A stretch of 43,496 bases of DNA, taken from a virus (lineage: Duplodnaviria; Heunggongvirae; Uroviricota; Caudoviricetes). The number at the start of each line of letters is the position of its first letter. Position 1 is the first letter of the stretch. This document shows, one piece after another, positions 3,631-32,932 of the stretch. The DNA is taken from the IMG/VR virus record IMGVR_UViG_2740892274_000012, one strand, 5' to 3'. A program made the translations under genes and the position numbers. The notes under the pieces were generated by a model. That model worked only from the letters and a program-made list of their open reading frames with translations, made no database searches and was not told the origin of the DNA.

Positions 3631-4211
3631 TTGTCGGTGTACCTCTCTCGTTTACTCAGTTGTTCAGGAATATGGTGCAGCAGCTCGCCGTCACCACAGT
3701 AAATGGCGGCATGATTCGGCACCGATGAACCAAAACAGCACAGCAGCACATCGCCCGGCTGCGCCGTTGACAACGGCACCTGATACAGCCCTGTAGCCTC
3801 CAGATTATCCAGATAGAGATTCTGACCATTACGCCACCAGTCGTCCTCACGATGAAAATCTGGCATCTCAATTCCCGCCAGATGGTAAGCGTCCCGGAAC
3901 AGCGTGTAACAGTCCGTCACCCCGTGCTCAAAGCGCCGCCCGGTGAGATGCGGCACACAGCGGAACTTGTGAATCGCCCCGCGGCAGACCAGCCACCACG
4001 ACAAATCACTCTGCACCTGCAGCCGCCGGTCGGCCTCACTCAGCCAGGGCAGACCACCGGGGTGGCTGTGGACCAGCGCCACAATCTCACCCTGCATCTC
4101 TGCCTGCAGCCAGTCCTCCGGAGCCATCCGGAAATACTCCTCCGGCTCACCGGAAATATTCACGCAGGGAAAATATCTTTCCCCCTCCGGTGTTCTCACC
4201 ACGAAGCCGCA
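3528..4211 (-). CDS. K: Tail assembly protein K (JAB/MPN-type HSHP motif plus NlpC/P60-like C-terminus); 5' end lost in the N gap
   Basis: Translation contains ...EIVALVHSHPGGLPWLSEADR... and ...GVTDCYTLFRDAYH...; the ORF runs into the N run at 4212. Confidence 0.8.
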   Translation of the reverse strand, partial: CGFVVRTPEGERYFPCVNISGEPEEYFRMAPEDWLQAEMQGEIVALVHSHPGGLPWLSEADRRLQVQSDLSWWLVCRGAIHKFRCVPHLTGRRFEHGVTDCYTLFRDAYHLAGIEMPDFHREDDWWRNGQNLYLDNLEATGLYQVPLSTAQPGDVLLCCFGSSVPNHAAIYCGDGELLHHIPEQLSKRERYTDKWQRRTHSLWRHRAWHASAFTGICSDLAAASTFV

Positions 4212-4461
4212 NNNNNNNNNNNNNNNNNNNNNNNNNNNNNNNNNNNNNNNNNNNNNNNNNNNNNNNNNNNNNNNNNNNNNNNNNNNNNNNNNNNNNNNNN
4301 NNNNNNNNNNNNNNNNNNNNNNNNNNNNNNNNNNNNNNNNNNNNNNNNNNNNNNNNNNNNNNNNNNNNNNNNNNNNNNNNNNNNNNNNNNNNNNNNNNNN
4401 NNNNNNNNNNNNNNNNNNNNNNNNNNNNNNNNNNNNNNNNNNNNNNNNNNNNNNNNNNNNN
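4212..4461. other. Assembly gap (250 N)
   Basis: Uninterrupted run of n characters. Confidence 0.99.
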
Positions 4462-4983
4462 GGTGCAGGTATTAGCAAGCATGATGCGCCCCGGAAAAAC
4501 AGCGCCGTCCGTTTCCGTCGGCGTGGACAGTACAAAGGAGGCACTGACCGCGCTCAGTTCGCTGCACTGCTCAATACGCCAGCGGCTGATCACCTCCTGC
4601 TCCGGATCGGCGTCACTGTTTCCGTTGACGAAGTTCACCGCATCCAGAAAACGGGCGTAAACCTTACGCCTGACCACCGTTCCGCCGACCAGACTCTGCA
4701 GGTCTTCCGCCATCCCGGTGACCATGCCGTGCAGATTAGAGACTTTCAGCGTTGGCCTTGCACTGGCACCTTTGCCGTTCATCTCAAATCCACTCCCCTG
4801 AATGGGATAGGCCTGATACTGCCGACTCTGCCAGGTGACAGACTCTCCTTTCTCGTTCTGCTCATTGCAGAAAAAGTAGCGATCCCCGCCTACCTCGGTC
4901 AGGTCGATTTCCCAGAGCACCACGCTGGCCGACTGCTCCGCACGAATGCATTCATTCAGCGTTTCCTGTTGTATGTCCTGCAT
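4462..4983 (-). CDS. L: Minor tail protein L (lambda-like); 3' end lost in the N gap
   Basis: N-terminus MQDIQQETLNECIRAEQSASVVLWEIDLTEVGGDRYFFCNEQNEKGESVTWQ... from ATG at 4983; frame runs into the N run. Confidence 0.8.
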
Positions 4984-5313: not shown

Positions 5314-8300
5314 TTAGCCACTTAACATTCCCCCATCACGTCGCATATTTAACAGATTGCCCTGCACCCGCTGATCAACCATCCCCATAAGTGCTTTTAT
5401 TGCCTGAGGGCCAATCTCTCCATTCTGGCCGTCATTTTGAATAGTGATTTGGTATACAGGGGCATAGGTAATATCTCCGCCTCCATTACCACTTTTACTA
5501 TTAATAGCTCTGACACCAAGAGAACCATCGGAAGTTCGTGTTAATGGCATAATGGCTTCCGGTCCAGCCTCACCAAAAACACCAGCCCCTTTTGCAAAAG
5601 CAAAAAATTGCGGGGAATCATAAATACCGTTCGAATACGTGCTCAATGACGGAGACTCATAAACACCGCCCTTTGCATTCGGAATAAATTTACTAATAGC
5701 ACTCCCGATAGTTCCTAAAATCCCCCCAGAAGAACTGTTACTAATGCTGTCGAAAATCCCAGTAATTGAAGCCTTTAATGCTATTCGACTAAGATCCGAA
5801 ATCACGGAAGTAGCGAAAGAACGAAAATTTGCCTTGCCTGTCGTGACAAAATCACCCAGCGCATCGGTCATCCCATCAAACATCTGAGTCGTGGTTGATT
5901 TTATCTGCTCACTGATATCCTTAGTGTCATCCAGCCAGTTATTGAATCCCTGGGAGGCACCACTAACCCAGTCTCCTGCCTGAATATCGAGCTGCTCGTT
6001 TTTCTGTCTGACAATTTCTTTTTCCCGTTCCAGAGCATCATTCAGAGCCTGCATTTTCTCTTGAAAAACATGATCTGACATTCCACGGGATTTATCTGCA
6101 TAGTCACGTTCAAGTTGCAGACGCTGATTGTTATATCCATGTTCAATCCGCAGTAATTCCTGCTGGCGTTGCTGATTTTTATCGCCAACCCCATAACCAG
6201 CAATCTGAATATCATACCCCTGCTGACGATTATCAATCGAAGCCTGCAATGAATCACGCCATGCTGTTATTTCGGCGGATTCCTTGATTAGCCTGTTATT
6301 TTTTTCAATCGCAACATTTTTCTCCATCAACGTGGTTATTTCTTCCCGGTGTAAGAGAAGCGATTTCTGATCCTGGGTTAATTTCGATGATGGTCGTGAC
6401 TCTAGGTCGGCAATCCGCTGACGCCACTTAACCAGTTCCTGTTCAGAGGAACTTAATTTAACGGTCAACTCAGCTTGTGAACTTAGTAACGCATTCTGTT
6501 GATTCAGATGATCAATCATTCGTTGGGCTGCATCATCAGAATAACCTTTCGCCTTTGGTTGCTTTGGATCTTTATAACGCTCATTTATTTGAGCGATAAG
6601 ATTATTATATTCTTCCTTTGAATACTGATTCTTTAGCTTTTCCAGTTTTGCAAGTTCACTAGCTCTCTGCTGCTCCCGGGTCTGATATTGTTTTGAAAAG
6701 GCATCTGCTCTCTGTCTGAGTTCAATTCCTTCCTGTTGTCGCTTGTTGTAATCGTTTATTGATGAATTTAGTACGTCCTGAGCAATTTTTTCTGCTTGAA
6801 GTACGCCCAATTGCTGCTTTAATCGTGCCAGCCTTTTATTTTGAGCTCCGCCATCTCCAATGCCACCTAACCCGAAAACTCCGGGTCGGGTATTTTTTTC
6901 TATTTCATCAATTTGACGGAGAACATCTGAGATTTTTTGATCAAGGGAGGCCTCACGGCCAATATCCAGCATGGAATCCCATGCCCATTTTGCGGAGTCT
7001 GCGACAGCTTTCCATGCAGTCTCAAGATAACCAAGATTTTCTTTAATCTGGTTGGTGCGCTGGATCATTGAGGATGAGTATTCTTCTGTCGCAATGCGGG
7101 CGGCCTCCTGCTGGTTCCCTTCATCCTGTAGCGCCTTAATCTGGTTATAAGTCGCAAGTGTCAGAAAATGGTACTGATCATTAAGTTTTGATATGGCACT
7201 GACAGGATCCTTTGCAATTTCATTGAAGTCATTAACCAGTTGTTCGGTTGATATTCCTGTTACTTCGCTCGTTTTTACTATCGCTGTCGTCACTTGCTCC
7301 AGCGAACTGCTCGCTACCTTTCCCGAACGCACAAGCTGATTTAATACTGCCGCCGCAGCACCAGTTGTCGAATCAGCCGCATTCCCGGCACGTTGAGCTA
7401 TATCGCCCAATTGCCCGCTGGTTGTCCCCAACTGATTTCCGGTAAGAATAAGAGATTTATTAAATTCGTCCTGCTCCTGAGAGCCTTTATAGTAAGCCAG
7501 TCCTAAGACCCCAACGGCTGCTGCGGCCAGGGTAAAAGGATTAATTAATCCCAGCACATAAGAACCTACACCTTTGATCGCCGGGCCAATCCCACCGAAC
7601 ATATCTTTTAGCTGGCCGCCCTGCTGCATTAACACCATAAATGGCGACTGACCAGTGGACAACCCAACAACAATATCCGTCATTTGTACAGGCAACATGC
7701 GCATAGCAAAAGCCGTTTGTTTTGCCGACATTCCGGTTTTGCTTAATTGTGATTGAGTAACCTCAAGCTCACTCCGCATAGCACGAAGTTTTCCAGAAAG
7801 CTCCTCATACATTTCAGGAGAAAGCATCCCCTTAGCTTTTGCTTCATTGAGCTGTTTCTGTTGTTCTACCAGACGATTAAAAGCAGTTCCGACAGGATCA
7901 AGTTGAGCAATCAGACGTTGCAAAGCAACAACCTGTTCATCATGCGCTTTTGCTGCTTCTCGCTCTGCCTGAGCCTCTCCGGTAAGCTCTCGCCGTGTTT
8001 CCTGTATTTTTCGGCTATAATTCTCAAACTGAGAACCATTTATTTTCCCGGATGCAAACGCAGCATTAAGTTCATCATGCTGTTGTTCAAGATTTCTTAG
8101 CGCCGCAGCCAGAGGGTCGATCTTGTCCAGCATTCTTTGAAAGGCCTGAGCCTGCGCTTCCTGCTGGGCGGCAGCAAGTTTTCCGGCCTTCTCGGCTTCT
8201 CTCTGCGCTTGCGCAACCCCGCTCAATTCCTCTGTGGTTTCATTAAGTTTACGGACAAGAAATTCATATTCTTCTTTATCAATAAGCCCTTTATCGAAAA

Positions 8301-8547
8301 ATTTCTTTAATTCAGAATAGCGTCGACCGACAGTATCAATTGCGGCACCAACTGGATCAATAGCTGCTTTTAATTTTGCGAGCGCGTTCTTCTCATCTTC
8401 TGTTGCCTTAGTCACTTTCCCTGCGCTATTTGCAGCAGTTTCCCCAGCCTGCGTCATTTTGACTAATGAGGAGGTCAGATTGTCAGCATTATTTTTCGCT
8501 CCAGTGCTATCAATAATTATTGCGAGACGCGAGGTTTGCTCTGCCAT
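5314..8547 (-). CDS. Tail tape measure protein (1077 aa)
   Basis: Very long ORF between the G/T chaperone pair and M; long coiled-coil-like Q/E/K/A-rich stretches and a central hydrophobic glycine-rich segment; AGGAG 10 nt upstream of the ATG. Confidence 0.85.
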
Positions 8548-8560
8548 TTATTAAAACTCC

Positions 8561-8592
8561 TGACAACAAAAAACCCACCGCGAAGTGGGTTT
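8561..8592 (-). terminator. Intrinsic terminator-like hairpin (minus strand) between the T frame and the tape measure gene
   Basis: Minus-strand RNA AAACCCAC-UUCGCG-GUGGGUUU followed by UUUUUGUUGU. Confidence 0.45.
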
Positions 8593-8712
8593 CAGGCGAC
8601 ATAATAGTAGATATAGCGATTACGAGGCCACGCAATGCTTTTCTCCAGGAGCATCATCGATTTAATTAAAGACACCATCACATCTCTGTAACAGAGTGTA
8701 CGTAATTAACAA

Positions 8713-9033
8713 CTACACACACTGCTCCTGAAAATACTGGTCATCCAGTGCAAAGATCACTGCTTCAAATTCATCGCGCTCAATCAATACCGGATGAGTG
8801 GCTAAATATTCATTTATCTCTGTCAGAGATAAAGGCAAAGGCACCCCAGCCATTCCAGCATAACGTCGGGCACGGGATATTACCGAATAGGCGTACAACA
8901 ACTCCTTAAGCACCGGGTCTATTTCTGGTTCCGGTATCGGTGGCAACCTGAGTTTTTCTCGCTTCCATCTTGCCTTTTCCCCCCTTTCTCCCCCGAACTC
9001 CGATAACCACCGCTGGGCAGCTATGGCTTTTTT
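8713..9033 (-). CDS. T-frame extension of the tail assembly chaperone (G-T fusion product made by -1 frameshift)
   Basis: The -1 frame relative to G is open from the slippery site at 9027-9033 to a stop at 8713. There is no convincing independent start with an SD (the track's first codon appears to be TTG). Confidence 0.6.
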   Translation of the reverse strand, partial: KKAIAAQRWLSEFGGERGEKARWKREKLRLPPIPEPEIDPVLKELLYAYSVISRARRYAGMAGVPLPLSLTEINEYLATHPVLIERDEFEAVIFALDDQYFQEQCV

Positions 9034-26359: not shown

Positions 26360-26902
26360 TCAAGCCATTTTCTCAGCAAATGATTCACGCATGGGAATAT
26401 ATAGGGCATACTCAGCAACAGCTAACCAATTAGCAATCCGTTTTTCGCATGTGCTAAAACACCACTCTGGGTGTGCATCATTTAGCAATTCAGCCATTTT
26501 GCGCTTAGTCATCCCCCGCCCTTCATAGCGTTGCCGGAGAATGCAAATCAATCCTGGATGCTCTGCCAGCACCTCACTTATGACTCGATCAATACATAAC
26601 GCCTCTGCATCAGTACAATGCGCCAGCCAGCTCTTTTGCTTGCCGTTGATCATCTCTCGCAAAAACGCTTCCAGCTCAGCTTTCTCTATTCCCGCTTTTT
26701 TCATTCTGCGCAGGGCTTCATTAATGGCTGTTTTCGTCAGTTTTTTGGATGCCAACAACTGATTGAACATATTCCCTGACCTGCCACCGCCAATATACGA
26801 CCAGCGCCCCCACATACGTAGTTTTCCCTGAATCCAGACACTTTCCAGCGTGGTGAGGCGAAGGTGTTCTCCGCTTTTTCCTGTATTCGTTGGGTAAATC
26901 AT
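26360..26902 (-). CDS. Putative late antiterminator Q
   Basis: 180-aa ORF directly upstream of the promoter/terminator pair and the lysis cassette; assignment mainly positional. Confidence 0.55.
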   Translation of the reverse strand: MIYPTNTGKSGEHLRLTTLESVWIQGKLRMWGRWSYIGGGRSGNMFNQLLASKKLTKTAINEALRRMKKAGIEKAELEAFLREMINGKQKSWLAHCTDAEALCIDRVISEVLAEHPGLICILRQRYEGRGMTKRKMAELLNDAHPEWCFSTCEKRIANWLAVAEYALYIPMRESFAEKMA

Positions 26903-27189
26903 AAATGACCTTTCTTTCTCCAGATTTCTTGTGTGCGAAAAACCCCTTCAGCATGCATCAGGCGCAATTCTTCTTTGGTGTAATCGCTGGTTTTTACCCG
27001 CCCGTCGATTAGATCGTGGCATGAGCTACAGGCTATCGCCGCCTGCATATCATGTGGTTTTGTCGCTGTTCCGCACGTCCCCGCCAGCCTGTAATGCGCC
27101 AGCACAGAGGTTTCGGGATTGTGATTGCAGTAGCCAGGGATTCTGATCTGGCACATCTGGCCTTTAGCCGCTTTACGTAAATTCACCAT
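26899..27189 (-). CDS. DUF1364-type (YbcO-like) nin-region protein, Cys/His-rich
   Basis: 96-aa ORF MVNLRKAAKGQMCQIRIPGYCNHNPETSVLAHYR... with C/H ligand pattern; overlaps the Q start. Confidence 0.55.
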   Translation of the reverse strand: MVNLRKAAKGQMCQIRIPGYCNHNPETSVLAHYRLAGTCGTATKPHDMQAAIACSSCHDLIDGRVKTSDYTKEELRLMHAEGVFRTQEIWRKKGHL

Positions 27190-27788
27190 TACGCAAACTC
27201 CAGTAGTTGTGCGGCCACATTTTCAACTTCCTCCTGAGAGGAGAATTTACGGAACAGAATCCAGTTCCACAGCACATTCAGTACAGATTTATAAACCTGC
27301 TGAAACTCGACTTCGTCCATATTCGCAAAAGCGATGGATTTTGCCCGACGCCCACGGCTACCGTCCGGATAAATATGCTCGGTGTAAAATCCGGCCTGAA
27401 TGGTTACCCACTCGCGGAAAGCCTCAAACGACTTTAGCAACGCCGTATCCCGGGTTCTACGAGTCGCAACGGTGTTAAGGTATTGCTCTGCGGCATCACT
27501 CAGGGCTGGCGTGTGTTCCCGACCAACTGATTCGCACAGGTAATCAACGAAACCAGACAGCAGTTCTCGTTCGCGAGGCGTGATCGCCCCACCGACCGGA
27601 GTCCAGTAATCGAATCCCAGTTGCAGGAGTTTGAAAAAACGCTTGTGGAATGCGTAGTTACGCACACGCTTAAAGTCTGCGTGTATCCACTCACCTATTT
27701 TGATTTGATGCAGAAAATCGCAACTCTCCGGCGTCGCCGGGAGAAGTAAACCAGAAGAGGTTTGTTTGACCAGTTGTATATGCGCCAT
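27189..27788 (-). CDS. DUF1367-type nin-region protein
   Basis: 199-aa ORF, stop overlapping the downstream start; conserved-looking lambdoid nin-region protein of unknown function. Confidence 0.55.
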   Translation of the reverse strand: MAHIQLVKQTSSGLLLPATPESCDFLHQIKIGEWIHADFKRVRNYAFHKRFFKLLQLGFDYWTPVGGAITPRERELLSGFVDYLCESVGREHTPALSDAAEQYLNTVATRRTRDTALLKSFEAFREWVTIQAGFYTEHIYPDGSRGRRAKSIAFANMDEVEFQQVYKSVLNVLWNWILFRKFSSQEEVENVAAQLLEFA

Positions 27789-28068
27789 TTCTCAATCTCT
27801 CGATGGCGCAGCGCAGCAGATGCCAGTTGTTCAGGCTGACGAATAAAGTATAAATAAACTGGCTATGGTGTAAAGCCCCACATAGCATGAACAAACACTA
27901 CATATCAAATAGCTGGTACAAGGATAGAAATACGACACTTATTATTAAAAACGATTAGATAAATTACATTTTAATGTTATGCAAAAGTTCTTTTTTATCA
28001 TAACATTTCAATAAAAGCATTACAGATGCAATCATCCCGTCATCATCAATTATTTAAGGTGGTTAAAC

Positions 28069-28155
28069 ATGGAAAATAACAAGTTCGCACATCTCGCTCC
28101 TTTTTTATCCGTAATCCTTTTCGCTTGTTGTTTTATATGGGCATTATTTTTATAA
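28069..28155 (+). CDS. 28-codon hydrophobic mini-ORF (candidate small membrane peptide)
   Basis: ATG 7 nt after TAAGGTGGT; MENNKFAHLAPFLSVILFACCFIWALFL; inside the AT-rich island; below the ORF-track size cutoff. Confidence 0.3.
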   Translation: MENNKFAHLAPFLSVILFACCFIWALFL

Positions 28156-28601
28156 AGTAGCCACATGATAAGTTGCTGGAATCATATTTCCCACTCAAGT
28201 CATTAACATTTGATAAGATATATCTAAAAGGACGCCTTTACATTATTTATGCGTATATAATTTATTTATATACACAGTAAAGGTATCCTGGGAAAATATT
28301 TATCGTTAAAAAATACATCATAAATAATTAAGCTGAAATTTCAGAACACAACTAATACACACAATAAGGTTCAGTAACAGTAATCTATGTGGACTACATC
28401 GAGATTTTTTGATTAAACTTTAATAACTTATTCCTAACACACAGAATGCATAAACTAAAAGTAAAACAAATAGTTATACGAAAAACAACCATATTTATTC
28501 TATCTTCTCCTCTAATCAACATATCAATTATGTGTTTCATAACAGCTTGACATAACCCTCCAAAAGATGCATTTTTAATGCATGTTTTGGAGGAGGTGGT
28601 T

Positions 28602-28940
28602 ATGACACACAAGAGAATTCCTAAAGATTGGGTAATCAAACGCTCAACTCCGTTCTTCACAAAAGAGAACGTACCTTCAGCGTTATTAACACATCATAAT
28701 ACAGCAGCAGGTGTTTTTGGGCAGTTGTGCGTAATGGAAGGCACTGTAACATATTATGGTTTTACTGATGAGAATGCTACTGAACCGGAGATAAAAGTAG
28801 TCATTAATGCTGGCGCTTTTGCAACAAGCCCACCACAATACTGGCACCGTGTTGAACTAAGCGATGATGCTCAGTTTAATATTAACTTTTGGGTCGCTCC
28901 AGACTTTTCGGGCGAAAAAGTCTATAGCACCAAAAAATAG
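28602..28940 (+). CDS. YeaR-like DUF1971 protein (accessory gene on the opposite strand)
   Basis: ATG preceded by GGAGGAGG; MTHKRIPKDWVIKRSTPFFTKENVPSALL...SPPQYWHRVELSDDAQFNINFWVAPDFSG parallels E. coli YeaR as I recall it. Confidence 0.7.
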   Translation: MTHKRIPKDWVIKRSTPFFTKENVPSALLTHHNTAAGVFGQLCVMEGTVTYYGFTDENATEPEIKVVINAGAFATSPPQYWHRVELSDDAQFNINFWVAPDFSGEKVYSTKK

Positions 28941-28970
28941 ATGATCATATTAAAAATGCTTTAACAGTCA

Positions 28971-29006
28971 GACCCGGCAGGGCTATCCCCGACGGGTCTC
29001 ATTTTT
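28971..29006 (+). terminator. Terminator-like hairpin after the yeaR-like gene
   Basis: GACCCG...CGGGUC stem with an inner GGG/CCC stem, followed by UCAUUUUUGU, about 30 nt after the stop. Confidence 0.4.
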
Positions 29007-29560
29007 GTAAATATATTGGTTCTACATTGACAGGAGACTTCAACCATAAGAAGTAATCTGAATACTTGAGCAATAAATTTACTTAAGATTAATGAGCGCA
29101 CCTTGCCGGACAAAGATAAACCAAGGTAACACCTTTTTTCTAGCCAGTATGTAATCAATCAGAAAGCCGCTCCATAAGAACAACAGCAAGACAATAAATT
29201 GCCATTACAGCCGCAATAGCCAGCGCACATTTGAGAACCAGCACGACAACCCCCTGTATTAGACGCACACCAGTCCTGATAAATATGAGGCTGTCTCGTC
29301 AGTGATTCAATACAACTATTGGGTATAGTTTCTGTGATTTTATTCTGTAGAAATGGAACACAACAACCAGTCACCACCAGCACTTCCTTAAATGCTCTAA
29401 GTCAGAAACAAGCCAACATTTTAGTCCGCTTTGAGCGATCTGCAGACATTGCTAGCAGCCTTCTGTGTGAATTCTCAGGGAGCAGGTCGGCATAGCATCA
29501 CGTTGAGGCTCTTACCCTACTTGTTCACACCAACCCTAACTCCACAGACTGATTCATAAA

Positions 29561-30562
29561 TTAGTAATCTGCGTGTTTCGCACTTTTCAGAAATGCTTTC
29601 ATATTTTCATTAGGTCGCTCAATTTCGAAGTTACTTCCATATAACTCTTGTAATTTTGGCCATAACTTACTTAATAACCCTCTCCTGCGATAAAATGGAT
29701 GTATCCAAACGGTAGATAGGTACGGAGAATTTGCATTTGAATTGTTTATTGTGACCAGCCCAACTAAACATTGTCGATAACCACTATTATCCATTGATTG
29801 TATTTCTTCGACGAATGGATACGCGATTACATCAGTCCAACCATGATCGGTTGTATCCCATTGCATTCCGTCATGACATTCCTTCGACTGATAGCGGCGT
29901 AAAGCTACACACGCGAGCTTTTGCCAATCTGGAGAATTAATTGTGATCTCTTCATCGTATGACGCGCCTATTGGAGCGGGTATTGGTCTGATTAATCCAG
30001 CATGGCATTCATCATAGAACTTCATGTTTCCCTCAGAAACGTTGTGTACGTTGGGTTGCTCCATGTGTGCGCCATTCAAAAATAGCTCTGATAGTAGTGT
30101 ATCTACACTGTAATCTTTATTGATTATTGTCGGCTTAGAGTTTTTCTTATTAAGGCCGCGAGTAACGATTTTTTGATCAATGTTAACAACATGGAATAAT
30201 CCGTCGGGGAGGCTAGCGAACCACGATGGGGCATCGGACCAGAATAGCATGCCTTTTGTACTTCTTAAGAGTTTAATTAAGTTAATACAAGCTTCTTCAC
30301 TAGTCTTGCCGTTGATGCGAAGTATGTTAGGACTAAAGTAATATTCATCCATATCAGGGAATGCAGCTTCGCAAAACTCCTGTACATAATTTAGCACCTG
30401 GATTCTACAGAGATCATCATAGCTGGTAATAACTAAGGGGGTATCTTCATTACTATTATGATTATCAATAATGCAATCTATAGCGAGACTTACTGCTTTG
30501 CGTATCACTTCAGTTGAATCTAACGACTCTAAAAATTTTGTCTTTCGTGTGCGAATATCCAT
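29561..30562 (-). CDS. Hypothetical protein (333 aa) with a C-terminal GNAT-like segment; downstream gene of the two-gene accessory operon
   Basis: ATG 15 nt after the upstream stop; C-terminal ...CLVGLVTINNSNANSPYLSTVWIHPFYRRRGLLSKLWPKLQELYG... resembles acetyltransferase motif A; AT-rich. Confidence 0.6.
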   Translation of the reverse strand: MDIRTRKTKFLESLDSTEVIRKAVSLAIDCIIDNHNSNEDTPLVITSYDDLCRIQVLNYVQEFCEAAFPDMDEYYFSPNILRINGKTSEEACINLIKLLRSTKGMLFWSDAPSWFASLPDGLFHVVNIDQKIVTRGLNKKNSKPTIINKDYSVDTLLSELFLNGAHMEQPNVHNVSEGNMKFYDECHAGLIRPIPAPIGASYDEEITINSPDWQKLACVALRRYQSKECHDGMQWDTTDHGWTDVIAYPFVEEIQSMDNSGYRQCLVGLVTINNSNANSPYLSTVWIHPFYRRRGLLSKLWPKLQELYGSNFEIERPNENMKAFLKSAKHADY

Positions 30563-30577
30563 GTATGACCTGCGCTA

Positions 30578-31600
30578 TTAAAATTCATGAATGAACGGTT
30601 TGTCATCTGGTTGCAAAATGGTGGTTTTATTCGTTGCTACATTTAAACTGTTGTAGAGCATAATTGCCAGGTTCGATGCATTTTCAATCAGCGTTTCAAG
30701 ATCCTGGTCTGTAATCACTACGAGGTTCCCTTCTTTATCCTTTCCACCACGATGCACTAAGTGATTTCGATTGAGGGTTGCCAATTCAATAGCTTCTATC
30801 GGACAGTCTTTTTGTACTTTTATATCGAATGTAGCTTCATAGCGGTCGATTACCTTTTTAGTGCTATGCCAGCTTGCACTGATCAAGTGTTCCTTGATTG
30901 ACCTGATTAGCTCTCCCCTAATTTTCTCGATGGGTTCACCCTTGAAAGGCAACGCAGCAATATCTTTGCTTACTTTAAATTCAGTCTTACCTTTTTCTAT
31001 ACAATTGGCTATGTAGACATCATCTTTCTCTATAGAATTAATGAATAGCTCAACATAAAGCGTTTCCAAAGCTGTAATAACATTCGTGTAGAGCAAACTA
31101 AGCAAGTGGTTTTTTTGCTGTTGTTCAGTTTTATCTTTTGCAAGTTTTTTTATTTTATCGATATTATCAATGAATTTTAAATACGGATTACCGGAAGACG
31201 TTACAGCGTCGTAGATATCATCATCGTACCAATCATCTATATTATTTGAGTTTCCAGACCAGTCAAAACATTGTGTTTGTAATTCATCTACTAATTCCTC
31301 AATATACTCAGATTTAACATATTGACCGAAGATGGATTGTAGTTCTTCGCTCGCATCATACGGCCCGCCATATATGTAAGCATAGCCACCTTCTCTACTT
31401 TCATACGGACAAGCATTTGCCGGATCTTCAAAGTTTTCAAAGAACCAGTTTTTCATTACTTCGAGTTGATCTTTTTTGCTTATGTATTTTAAAGATTTTA
31501 GTGGAACTTTCTTTCCATTAACCTCGAAAACAATTTTCACGATGTAACGCTCCCTTGTATCAATTGCGCAACTATTATACCACAGCGAAATACAGGGCAT
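30578..31600 (-). CDS. Hypothetical protein (340 aa) with an R-x4-H (RNHLVH) HEPN-like motif; upstream gene of the two-gene accessory operon
   Basis: ATG at 31600 preceded by AAGGAGG (6-nt spacer); acidic, D/E/K-rich; AT-rich. The ORF track extends 23 codons upstream without an SD. Confidence 0.6.
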   Translation of the reverse strand: MPCISLWYNSCAIDTRERYIVKIVFEVNGKKVPLKSLKYISKKDQLEVMKNWFFENFEDPANACPYESREGGYAYIYGGPYDASEELQSIFGQYVKSEYIEELVDELQTQCFDWSGNSNNIDDWYDDDIYDAVTSSGNPYLKFIDNIDKIKKLAKDKTEQQQKNHLLSLLYTNVITALETLYVELFINSIEKDDVYIANCIEKGKTEFKVSKDIAALPFKGEPIEKIRGELIRSIKEHLISASWHSTKKVIDRYEATFDIKVQKDCPIEAIELATLNRNHLVHRGGKDKEGNLVVITDQDLETLIENASNLAIMLYNSLNVATNKTTILQPDDKPFIHEF

Positions 31601-31738
31601 AACCTGCCTCCTTAAACTAACATACCATGAGCCAGCAATGTCCGCTATTGGCACAAAGCGGACAACCACGCTAGCTCTCCCCTGTGCCAGAAAAATGTCA
31701 ATTTACATATGAACTAATGCTCTTTGATCTAGTAACGT

Positions 31739-32155
31739 CTATAAATACCGAAGATTTCCTTGATAAAATGCCAGTACACGTTTCATAACTTCACTCTTCC
31801 GGCACTCGCGACAGATTATGTTCTGACGCCTGTCATAGCGGCGTATTTCTCCGTCTGGTAATGACCAGATAAGGTCAGGATCAACCACAACCGTTTTTTT
31901 CACCTTTGCCCTGGATAGTTTTTTGCGGGCGTTTTTCCAATCCTTACGAGCCTGTTCAGACGGGAATAACCCATAGCCAGAGTTGTATACATCGCCACTG
32001 GCAACCAACTCTCTGGCAAGAATGCTCATCAGATATCTTGTCGCACCTGTCTTGGCCTCCAGTTGCCTTAACGTCTCGCGCCCACTCTGGCGTACCAACT
32101 CAACAACCTGCTCCTTAATTTTTTCACGCTCTTCCTGTGTAAAAACTTTTGCCAT
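31739..32155 (-). CDS. Hypothetical phage protein (138 aa), basic, with a C-x2-C pair
   Basis: ATG at 32155 preceded by GGAGG; MAKVFTQEEREKIKEQVVEL... Confidence 0.5.
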   Translation of the reverse strand: MAKVFTQEEREKIKEQVVELVRQSGRETLRQLEAKTGATRYLMSILARELVASGDVYNSGYGLFPSEQARKDWKNARKKLSRAKVKKTVVVDPDLIWSLPDGEIRRYDRRQNIICRECRKSEVMKRVLAFYQGNLRYL

Positions 32156-32170
32156 AAGCGCCTCCGGCAA

Positions 32171-32932
32171 TCACTTTTCCGACACAATACGACTGGAGGA
32201 ATCGACAATCTGTCGGACAATATCCCGGTGCTTGTTCAGCTCCCGCAGCGCGGCGCAGACTCGCTCCCACTTCTGGACATGATTTTTCGCCCGACGCAGT
32301 TCGCGGTTTGCCATATGCAGCGATGGTAAAACTAGGTCATCCGCTTGCGTTTCAGTAAACGATGGCAGCGACTGCACAATGTCCGCCACAGTTTCTGTTT
32401 TAATATCTTCCTGTGTTGCCGCTTCCTGTACTGGTAACGCAACACCGGCTGGCTGAGGAAAGGCTTTACCATCAGTTTCCGCTACCGATGCAGCTTTCGG
32501 CTCTGCTGGTAAATTATCGCCCGGCATGCAGTAACGAAATTTACTGTTCTGGTTTACGCGAATCAGGCGTCCTTTGCTGATTGCCATTGCCAGCGTTGAA
32601 GCAACTTTGCGGGATGTTGTACCGAACAGCGTAGCCAGTTCATCCGCCGTTTGTGGTCCGCGTTGTTCAATCGTCGCGGTTAAATCGCACTCTGAGATTT
32701 TCACTACAGTTGCCGTGGTGGTTTCTTCCGGCAGTTCTGCCTGCATTGGCTGTTCCTGCTGAACGTTGTTATCAGCCACACGCCAGGTGTACGCGCTTTT
32801 ATCAACGAAACCAGCTTTTTTCAGTTCCCATAGTTCGTTCAGCACTTCTTCACGACTGATATCAAGTCGCGCAGCAAGTTCTATGGATGTGGCTTTTCCC
32901 ATTGCTTTCAGTGCGTCAAAAACAGTCTCCAT
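32171..32932 (-). CDS. Hypothetical phage protein with an N-terminal winged-helix-like segment
   Basis: ATG at 32932 preceded by GGGAGG (8-nt spacer); [43 protein letters not shown]...; the track start would overlap ydaV by 29 nt. Confidence 0.5.

Follow-up and report, generated by a model that had tools for sequence, protein, structure and literature searches.

What function is served by two tandem AT-rich genes that encode a HEPN protein and a GNAT protein and lie between the replication genes and the lysis region of a Rac-like prophage? The question arises from positions 29561 to 31600 of IMG/VR record IMGVR_UViG_2740892274_000012, a caudoviricete sequence of 43,496 nucleotides (nt), here called the window. 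The original prediction, made from the sequence alone, regarded the upstream gene (A) and the downstream gene (B) as an undescribed toxin or defense module. The cassette is the published antiphage system DS-33 and is not new. With high confidence, DS-33 is here a cargo element (a "moron") of a Rac-like prophage, with protein A acting essentially as a single-protein effector and protein B as a separable accessory.

Identity with DS-33 and published phenotypes

Protein A of the window is identical to DS-33A in 320 of 320 residues, and protein B is identical to DS-33B in 332 of 333 residues (Table S8 of the DefensePredictor paper, Science 2026, PMC13092281). The only difference is residue 289 of B, a proline in the window and a leucine in the tested DS-33 clone. 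Table S6 of that paper lists the system as two proteins of one transcription unit, WP_014639476.1 and WP_000354965.1, with a length of 1980 nt (963+15+1002), the working id "GNAT," and the entry defensive = TRUE. The unit spans positions 6922 to 8901 of NZ_QOWT01000046.1. The window matches this unit in its genes, in the 15-nt spacer, and in the total length of 1980 nt. An identical prophage in Escherichia coli FORC_081 encodes WP_014639476.1 and WP_000354966.1. The match to DS-33 was located only in the supplementary tables of PMC13092281; keyword literature searches and an accession search of main texts found no HEPN+GNAT system. The novelty claimed for the pair therefore does not stand.

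The DefensePredictor authors introduced the unit into E. coli MG1655 on a low-copy plasmid, together with its predicted native promoter, and challenged the strain with 24 phages. DS-33 protects ∼10^2- to 10^6-fold against T7, T3, Bas67, and Bas26. Table S7 gives the plating results as log10 protection in two replicates. The wild-type values are 3.8/2.6 for T7, 3.3/2.4 for T3, 4.0/2.0 for Bas67, 5.0/5.9 for Bas26, and 0.8/0.1 for T5. Deletion of the HEPN gene yields values of ∼0 on these five phages, and the R258A exchange in protein A yields values of 0 to 0.8. Deletion of the GNAT gene gives 4.8/4.3, 3.3/3.3, 4.0/3.3, 5.0/4.9, and 1.7/0.5 for the phages in the same order. Those authors showed experimentally the defense function that had been anticipated for the window and found that it depends on gene A and on R258 but not on B. 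Their model gives A a log-odds score of 9.45 and B one of 1.08 (Table S8), and their HHblits search links A to PD-T4-2_B with a probability of 96.1 and a coverage of 55%. The paper offers neither a mechanism nor a trigger or target, and it contains no analysis of genomic context and no role for the GNAT protein (PMC13092281).

The HEPN protein as effector

Gene A occupies positions 30578 to 31540 on the minus strand and encodes a protein of 320 amino acids (aa). An N-terminal HEPN/RES-NTD1 domain covers approximately residues 1 to 100 (positions 31241 to 31540), followed by an all-alpha HEPN domain at approximately residues 140 to 308 (positions 30617 to 31123). The motif RNHLVH, which had been noticed as HEPN-like, comprises residues 258 to 263 (positions 30769 to 30752). 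R258, H263, and the adjacent R264 are invariant in 57 aligned homologues of A, and the arrangement corresponds to the Rx4-6H pattern of HEPN proteins. The published loss of defense in R258A shows that this site, the presumed catalytic motif, is required.

PF18870 (HEPN/RES-NTD1) matches 54 of the 57 members of the A family (E ≤ 0.01). PF18735, the RiboL-PSP type of HEPN, matches 29 of the 57 homologues with a best E value of 7.1e-11; protein A of the window itself has no listed match to this family. Profile searches of the A and B families against PDB sequences returned nothing, NCBIfam yielded no useful match, and the PHROG matches were confined to families of unknown function.

The HEPN/RES-NTD1 domain was defined as a fusion partner of toxin domains, HEPN and RES among them (PMC3710099). 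Because it is common to these toxin-type proteins, it is the likeliest sensor of A and is regarded here as a candidate sensory or regulatory domain. In alphaproteobacteria, the domain is joined to C-termini other than HEPN (loci L062 to L084). A GIGHNNPP motif is conserved in these C-termini, which close with a hydrophobic segment whose last residues are PF; they may represent another effector type with the same N-terminal domain.

Most proteins of the A family, including distant members encoded alone, end in a short acidic stretch with a terminal phenylalanine (...HEF, ...SEF, or ...EDF). In the window, this tail is encoded at positions 30578 to 30610, and the alphaproteobacterial proteins that share only the NTD1 likewise end in ...PF. 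The tail could be autoinhibitory or could bind a partner. A natural variant of A in locus L173 is without it.

The intact HEPN fold and motif, together with the tolerance of cells toward A, suggest that the protein is a latent RNase. For the metal-independent RNase activity expected of the HEPN superfamily, the published R258A phenotype is the one, indirect piece of evidence.

The GNAT protein

Gene B extends from position 30562 to 29561 on the minus strand and encodes 333 aa with an ATG start and a TAA stop. Residues 1 to ∼180 form an alpha/beta domain without a Pfam match, and residues ∼181 to 333 adopt the GNAT fold. The GNAT-like C-terminus that the original prediction had recognized is confirmed by this fold; the motif-A-like segment YLSTVWIHPFYRRRG lies at residues 281 to 295 (positions 29678 to 29722). 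Motif A (R/Q-x-x-G-x-G/A) reads R-R-R-G-L-L; some members lack the glycine, and leucine or lysine stands at the final G/A position. R292 in motif A and Y308-G309 in a motif-B-like segment are invariant in the B alignment. P289 (codon at positions 29696 to 29698), situated at the strand-helix junction of motif A, is conserved in at least 90% of the alignment and is a proline in 96 of 96 B loci with 33 to 100% identity. PF00583 matches 28 of 47 members of the B family.

In an exhaustive profile search with B, its N-terminal domain had no remote relatives joined to other domains; the search revealed only fragments and small stand-alone GNAT proteins. The latter, of ∼160 aa, match residues 180 to 331 with E values down to 1e-37. 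The gene for one of them lies in a phage, flanked by a DUF3987 primase-like gene and the terminase gene (L194, positions 4001 to 4483), and B also matches PHROG 36762. In phages, the small relatives of the C-terminal domain lie directly 3' of a primase-like gene, and full-length B genes without A likewise tend to follow primase genes (L002 and L106).

A role of B as a translation-poisoning toxin of the TacT or AtaT kind, with A as its partner, is already contradicted and retains next to no probability. The GNAT fold and the location on mobile elements would suit such a toxin, but B, at 333 aa, has an extra domain, there is no ribbon-helix-helix (RHH) or other antitoxin gene as in TacAT and AtaRT, and intact B-only loci are common. 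In addition, the published HEPN-deletion construct, which contains B alone, plated normally.

Movement of the pair and its separation

The families of both proteins are deep, with 122 matches for A and 66 for B, so that the two-gene pattern is not a product of chance. The pair travels as a unit of ∼2.1 kb among prophages, plasmids, and Aeromonas defense islands. A block shared with Serratia grimesii shows 97% nucleotide identity over window positions 31663 to 29487, and a block shared with Aeromonas islands shows 86% over positions 31599 to 29519. The block is found on six plasmids, including IncF resistance plasmids. A Citrobacter plasmid with the cassette also has phage-like genes for a thymidylate synthase and a phage N-6-adenine methyltransferase, and a Providencia plasmid carries a further version. 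In locus L173, the block adjoins int/xis of another prophage. In mobilizable islands of Aeromonas, the pair stands beside ThsA/ThsB, TIR, SIR2+cREC, AbiEi, and Xre-MbcA genes. Except in deletion derivatives, every B gene of at least 73% identity has an A gene of at least 84% identity directly upstream. In L173, ∼40 nt separate the open reading frames (ORFs), and A is shortened at its C-terminus; the 308-aa protein encoded there was considered as an alternative effector upstream of B and proved to be this shortened A.

The two genes are also found apart. Homologues of A with 54 to 77% identity occur without B. One of them, with 69% identity, lies in P2-like prophages of Yersinia exactly between gpA and ogr/gpQ; the P2 gpA-gpQ locus is a defense hotspot (Rousset et al.). 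A solo copy of A in E. coli is located within a small integrative element, and a search for a conserved neighbor in 55 distant A loci found none. Solo homologues of B with 33 to 56% identity occur in marine gammaproteobacteria. Solo B genes have P4-alpha-like or other primase genes in front of them and HigBA-like or ATPase genes beside them; distant B homologues have neither A nor a common neighbor. Gene A was deleted at least two times independently, with B and the leader kept: the deletion junctions differ, and the closest relatives of each of these B genes still have A. From a 142-member B cluster spanning several genera, one locus was examined, and it is B-only. On the Providencia plasmid, A is fragmented and B is intact. 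Conversely, E. coli SF-173 (L193) has an IS1 element inside B and an intact A.

The ratio of nonsynonymous to synonymous substitution rates (dN/dS) of B is 0.31 to 0.34 between lineages without A, compared to 0.28 to 0.48 between paired lineages. B is thus under purifying selection after the loss of A. Gene A is constrained more tightly than B, with a dN/dS of 0.12 to 0.21. The pair is a unit as a vehicle, not an obligate partnership.

These findings bear on the proposal of a toxin-antitoxin (TA) module, which was part of the original prediction. In a version similar to type VII systems, B would acetylate or sequester A, infection would relieve this control, and A would kill the cell, an acetylation counterpart of HepT/MntA. 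The tight operon, the fixed 15-nt spacer, and the inheritance of the pair in many contexts agree with such a module. The recurrent loss or decay of A next to a surviving B is reminiscent of orphan antitoxins, and deletion of B leads, over the two replicates, to equal or ∼10- to 50-fold-stronger protection against T7, T3, Bas67, and T5, as the loss of a brake would. However, in a TA pair the toxin should not persist in the absence of its antitoxin, and the genes should co-occur obligately. Instead, most genes of the A family have neither B nor another conserved partner, E. coli SF-173 is alive with B disrupted and A intact, and the GNAT-deletion strain is viable with full or stronger defense and still distinguishes infected from uninfected cells. 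Moreover, B-only lineages remain under purifying selection with no A to neutralize, distant B homologues are encoded alone, and protection against Bas26 drops in one replicate of the B deletion. A TA module of this kind is accordingly judged improbable, and the assumed partnership of nuclease and acetyltransferase is not borne out. B is not a TacT-like toxin, and it is not an antitoxin in the classical sense.

The role of B

The separability of the genes also allows the opposite view, namely, that two independent single-gene modules were stacked once. The two would now travel together, with A providing defense and B acting as a second defense protein against phages beyond those of the tested panel, an acetyltransferase for counter-defense or self-immunity, or a protection during prophage induction. 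Both families occur mostly alone, B stays intact with unchanged dN/dS after independent deletions of A, and the stand-alone relatives of ∼160 aa, one of them phage encoded, as well as the match to PHROG 36762 and the solo B genes beside primase, HigBA-like, or ATPase genes, all fit a function of its own. The low DefensePredictor score of B next to that of A fits as well. On the other hand, the invariant 15-nt junction and the lack of a promoter signal specific to B point to coexpression, not just to adjacency. Deletion of B alone alters the strength of the A-dependent defense, and B alone, in the HEPN deletion, is unprotective against the five phages retested. Independent stacking is a tenable explanation, though one with less than an even chance.

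For the role of B within the preferred reading, in which A is the effector and B a separable accessory, the data fit either a modest brake on A or a function that serves the mobile element independently of A. Deletion of B tends to strengthen defense and the junction is strictly conserved, which argues for a brake. B persists under constraint after the loss of A and has stand-alone relatives in phages, which argues for an A-independent role.

A more specific proposal makes B an acetyl-CoA-dependent brake that modifies A near the Rx4H motif, analogous to HepT/MntA, or a factor for prophage self-immunity at induction. Here, the published dispensability would understate the importance of B, since the cloned allele carries P289L. 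Deletion of even this allele raised protection up to ∼50-fold, which, with the strict conservation of the junction, is compatible with the proposal. It is nevertheless considered unlikely.

Several observations weigh against the reading of A as a lone effector with B as an accessory. On the proteins of the window themselves, PF18870 reaches 22.2 bits (residues 26 to 92 of A) compared to a cutoff of 27.4, and PF00583 reaches 19.9 bits on B compared to a cutoff of 20.7. PADLOC detected no known system in A, B, or any of the 57 relatives of A, with the PD-T4-2 models included, and DS-33 is not discussed individually in the main text of PMC13092281. The 15-nt spacing is kept across contexts wherever A is full length (A of at least 84% and B of at least 73% identity). 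This strict junction argues for some functional coupling of A and B that the account does not explain. Finally, the dispensability of the GNAT protein rests on the P289L allele, at a position occupied by proline in all 96 loci. The published result may stem from a weakened B allele, and a role in defense is therefore conceivable for the consensus B.

Organization of the cassette and its leader

The mobile block covers positions 29519 to 31663 on the minus strand and consists of a leader, gene A, the spacer, gene B, and a short 3' tail. As predicted, two genes on the same strand are separated by exactly 15 nt, located at positions 30563 to 30577 between the TAA end of A at 30578 and the start of B. 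The spacer is of the AGCGCAGGTCATAC type and is conserved in paired loci with B identities as low as ∼78%.

The original prediction assigned 340 codons to the first gene on the basis of the ATG at position 31600, for which the AAGGAGG site at positions 31613 to 31607, six bases 5', is indeed present. The start itself is not conserved, with ATA or TTG at this position in several related loci among 19 aligned upstream regions. All 19 have a GTG or ATG corresponding to position 31540 and preceded by AAGGAG or AAGGGAG. Homologous A proteins all begin with MK(I/V)VF.. at the position of the GTG at 31540, and the Prokaryotic Genome Annotation Pipeline (PGAP) calls the same start for the 320-aa form, WP_014639476.1. 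Because of the conserved ribosome-binding site and start codon, the N-termini of the homologues, and the PGAP call, gene A is taken as positions 30578 to 31540; the ATG at 31600 and its AAGGAGG site are probably not those in use.

An extended -10-like element, TGgTATAAT, is located at positions 31574 to 31582 on the minus strand, 34 nt 5' of the GTG. It is kept as TG(G/A)TA(T/C)AAT in 12 of 15 aligned paired loci. In the exceptions L130 (TTGTAAAAT) and L133 (CGGTATAAT), the TG is altered, and L142 reads TGATATTA. The element falls within the DNA block common to the window and Aeromonas. A generic two-hexamer promoter scan did not list it, and a consensus scan for promoters and terminators gave counts at the level of shuffled sequence. 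Judged by its conservation, the element is probably the promoter of the cassette. An inverted repeat, GTCCGCTttgtgccaatAGCGGAC, lies at the cassette's 5' edge (positions 31640 to 31663). The repeat is conserved in the enterobacterial paired loci and 5' of a solo A homologue in Yersinia and is still present in derivatives with A deleted. As no run of T residues follows it, the repeat is not an obvious terminator. The upstream DUF977 gene was considered as a further part of the cassette, since the Aeromonas copies also have an upstream gene, of 138 aa; the two show no similarity, and the shared DNA begins only at position 31599.

The G+C content is 36.1% for A, 39.1% for B, and 38.3% for the cassette, compared to 46.5% for DUF977, 49.9% for DUF1627, 52.7% for ydaV, and 50.2% for DUF1367, in line with the foreign composition first noticed by eye. 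The AT-rich island extends beyond the cassette to position 27789, with 36.7% G+C at positions 27789 to 29518. This remainder contains a plus-strand gene of the DUF1971 family at positions 28578 to 28940 and ∼800 bp of 28 to 34% G+C without a convincing ORF or Rfam match. In other Rac-like prophages, hok/gef occupies this place. An Rfam scan of positions 26500 to 32500 returned zero RNA families, and hok/sok is thus absent there.

Prophage context and the variable slot

The annotation of the identical copy in E. coli FORC_081 (L001) describes a Rac-like prophage, in which the genes follow one another as xisR, recET, kilR, sieB, the repressor gene, ydaT, ydaU, a DnaC-like gene (ydaV in the window), DUF1627, and DUF977, followed by two "hypothetical proteins," which are the cassette. 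Past the cassette follow a DUF1971 gene on the opposite strand, DUF1367/DUF1364/DUF1133, the lysis genes, and trkG. The annotation thus verifies the proposed position between the replication genes and the lysis region. In FORC_081, ydaU, the DnaC-like gene, and DUF1627 (positions 7512 to 8630) are annotated as truncated pseudogenes; they are intact in the window, and the cassette is kept in the decaying prophage.

The cassette is present in 209 of 5426 complete E. coli genomes, with at least 99% identity in 208 of them. The DUF1627-DUF977 flank occurs in 1019 E. coli genomes at a coverage of at least 80%. Five sampled prophages with the same flanks carry other cargo in the slot after DUF977: QueH with Hok and Doc; a Dcm methylase with an ATP-dependent nuclease and Hok; two other hypothetical proteins with Hok; QueH with HokD; and a hydrolase with HokD. 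The slot therefore varies while its flanks are conserved, as had been surmised. At the megablast level, the cassette was not found in the GenBank phage collection.

Two slot contents are candidate defense genes in their own right. In E. coli MS 85-1 (L186), the Dcm methylase is accompanied by an "ATP-dependent nuclease" of 609 aa, and in GPEC1258 (L187), a pair of hypothetical proteins of 310 and 184 aa is encoded on the opposite strand. In E. coli O78 strain 3 (L168), an IS2 element lies between DUF977 and gene A, 5' of the promoter region.

Comparison with known HEPN systems

The architecture of A was described by Anantharaman et al. in 2013 (PMC3710099), with KPK_1764 of Klebsiella pneumoniae 342 as the type example of the NTD1-HEPN fusion and a predicted Abi-like function. 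Those authors placed the NTD1 fusions in the MAE_28990/MAE_18760 group of HEPN proteins with ParA/Soj partners and did not mention a GNAT partner.

PD-T4-2 (Vassallo et al. 2022) is, like DS-33, an antiphage system of E. coli and combines a DUF262/ParB-like protein with a RiboL-PSP-type HEPN protein. Its HEPN domain belongs to PF18735, the Pfam subfamily matched by the 29 A homologues mentioned above. In contrast, the cassette of the window has no DUF262 neighbor, the partner is a dispensable GNAT protein, and A contains the HEPN/RES-NTD1 domain.

HepS from the prophage Gifsy-1 (Sargen et al., Nature 2026, PMC13043305) is a prophage-encoded HEPN protein that senses infection alone and blocks phages. 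HepS and A raise the same question of how the carrier prophage escapes self-targeting. HepS becomes active through tail-tip proteins of siphoviruses and cuts the anticodon loops of tRNAs (PMC13043305). The two proteins share no sequence relationship beyond the fold, and HepS has neither the NTD1 nor a GNAT neighbor.

The type VII TA system HepT/MntA (HEPN-MNT) likewise places a HEPN RNase-type protein beside a partner with the fold of a protein-modifying enzyme. Contrary to HepT/MntA, the partner in the window is a GNAT protein instead of a nucleotidyltransferase, the effector gene comes first, and the partner is not needed for viability. Furthermore, A has an extra N-terminal domain and its family mostly occurs without any partner.

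Proposed mechanism and implications

A multistep mechanism is proposed for DS-33 in its prophage setting. In the lysogen, the cassette would be transcribed from its own putative promoter, and A would be produced yet held inactive. Infection by certain phages, in the published panel T7, T3, Bas67, and Bas26, would activate A, most plausibly through recognition of the trigger by its N-terminal domain. Once active, the HEPN site would cut RNA, and phage production would stop. B would be cotranscribed with A and stand outside the killing step, most likely tempering A or serving the mobile element independently of A.

The original prediction is partly supported. It was right on both folds, the foreign origin, the variable slot, and the defense function and wrong on the undescribed status and the two-component or TA logic. 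The main value of the result is the confirmation that a reading of raw sequence can single out a true defense cassette. The slot after DUF977 in Rac-like prophages is a place to seek further cargo, and the comparative map offers this slot, the solo A gene in the P2 hotspot, the B-only derivatives, and the plasmid and Aeromonas copies as experimental handles. Beyond the DS-33 paper, the interest of the cassette lies in a GNAT gene that is faithfully cotransferred yet dispensable, in the consensus Pro289 allele of this gene, and in the trigger and the RNA target of the NTD1-HEPN protein.

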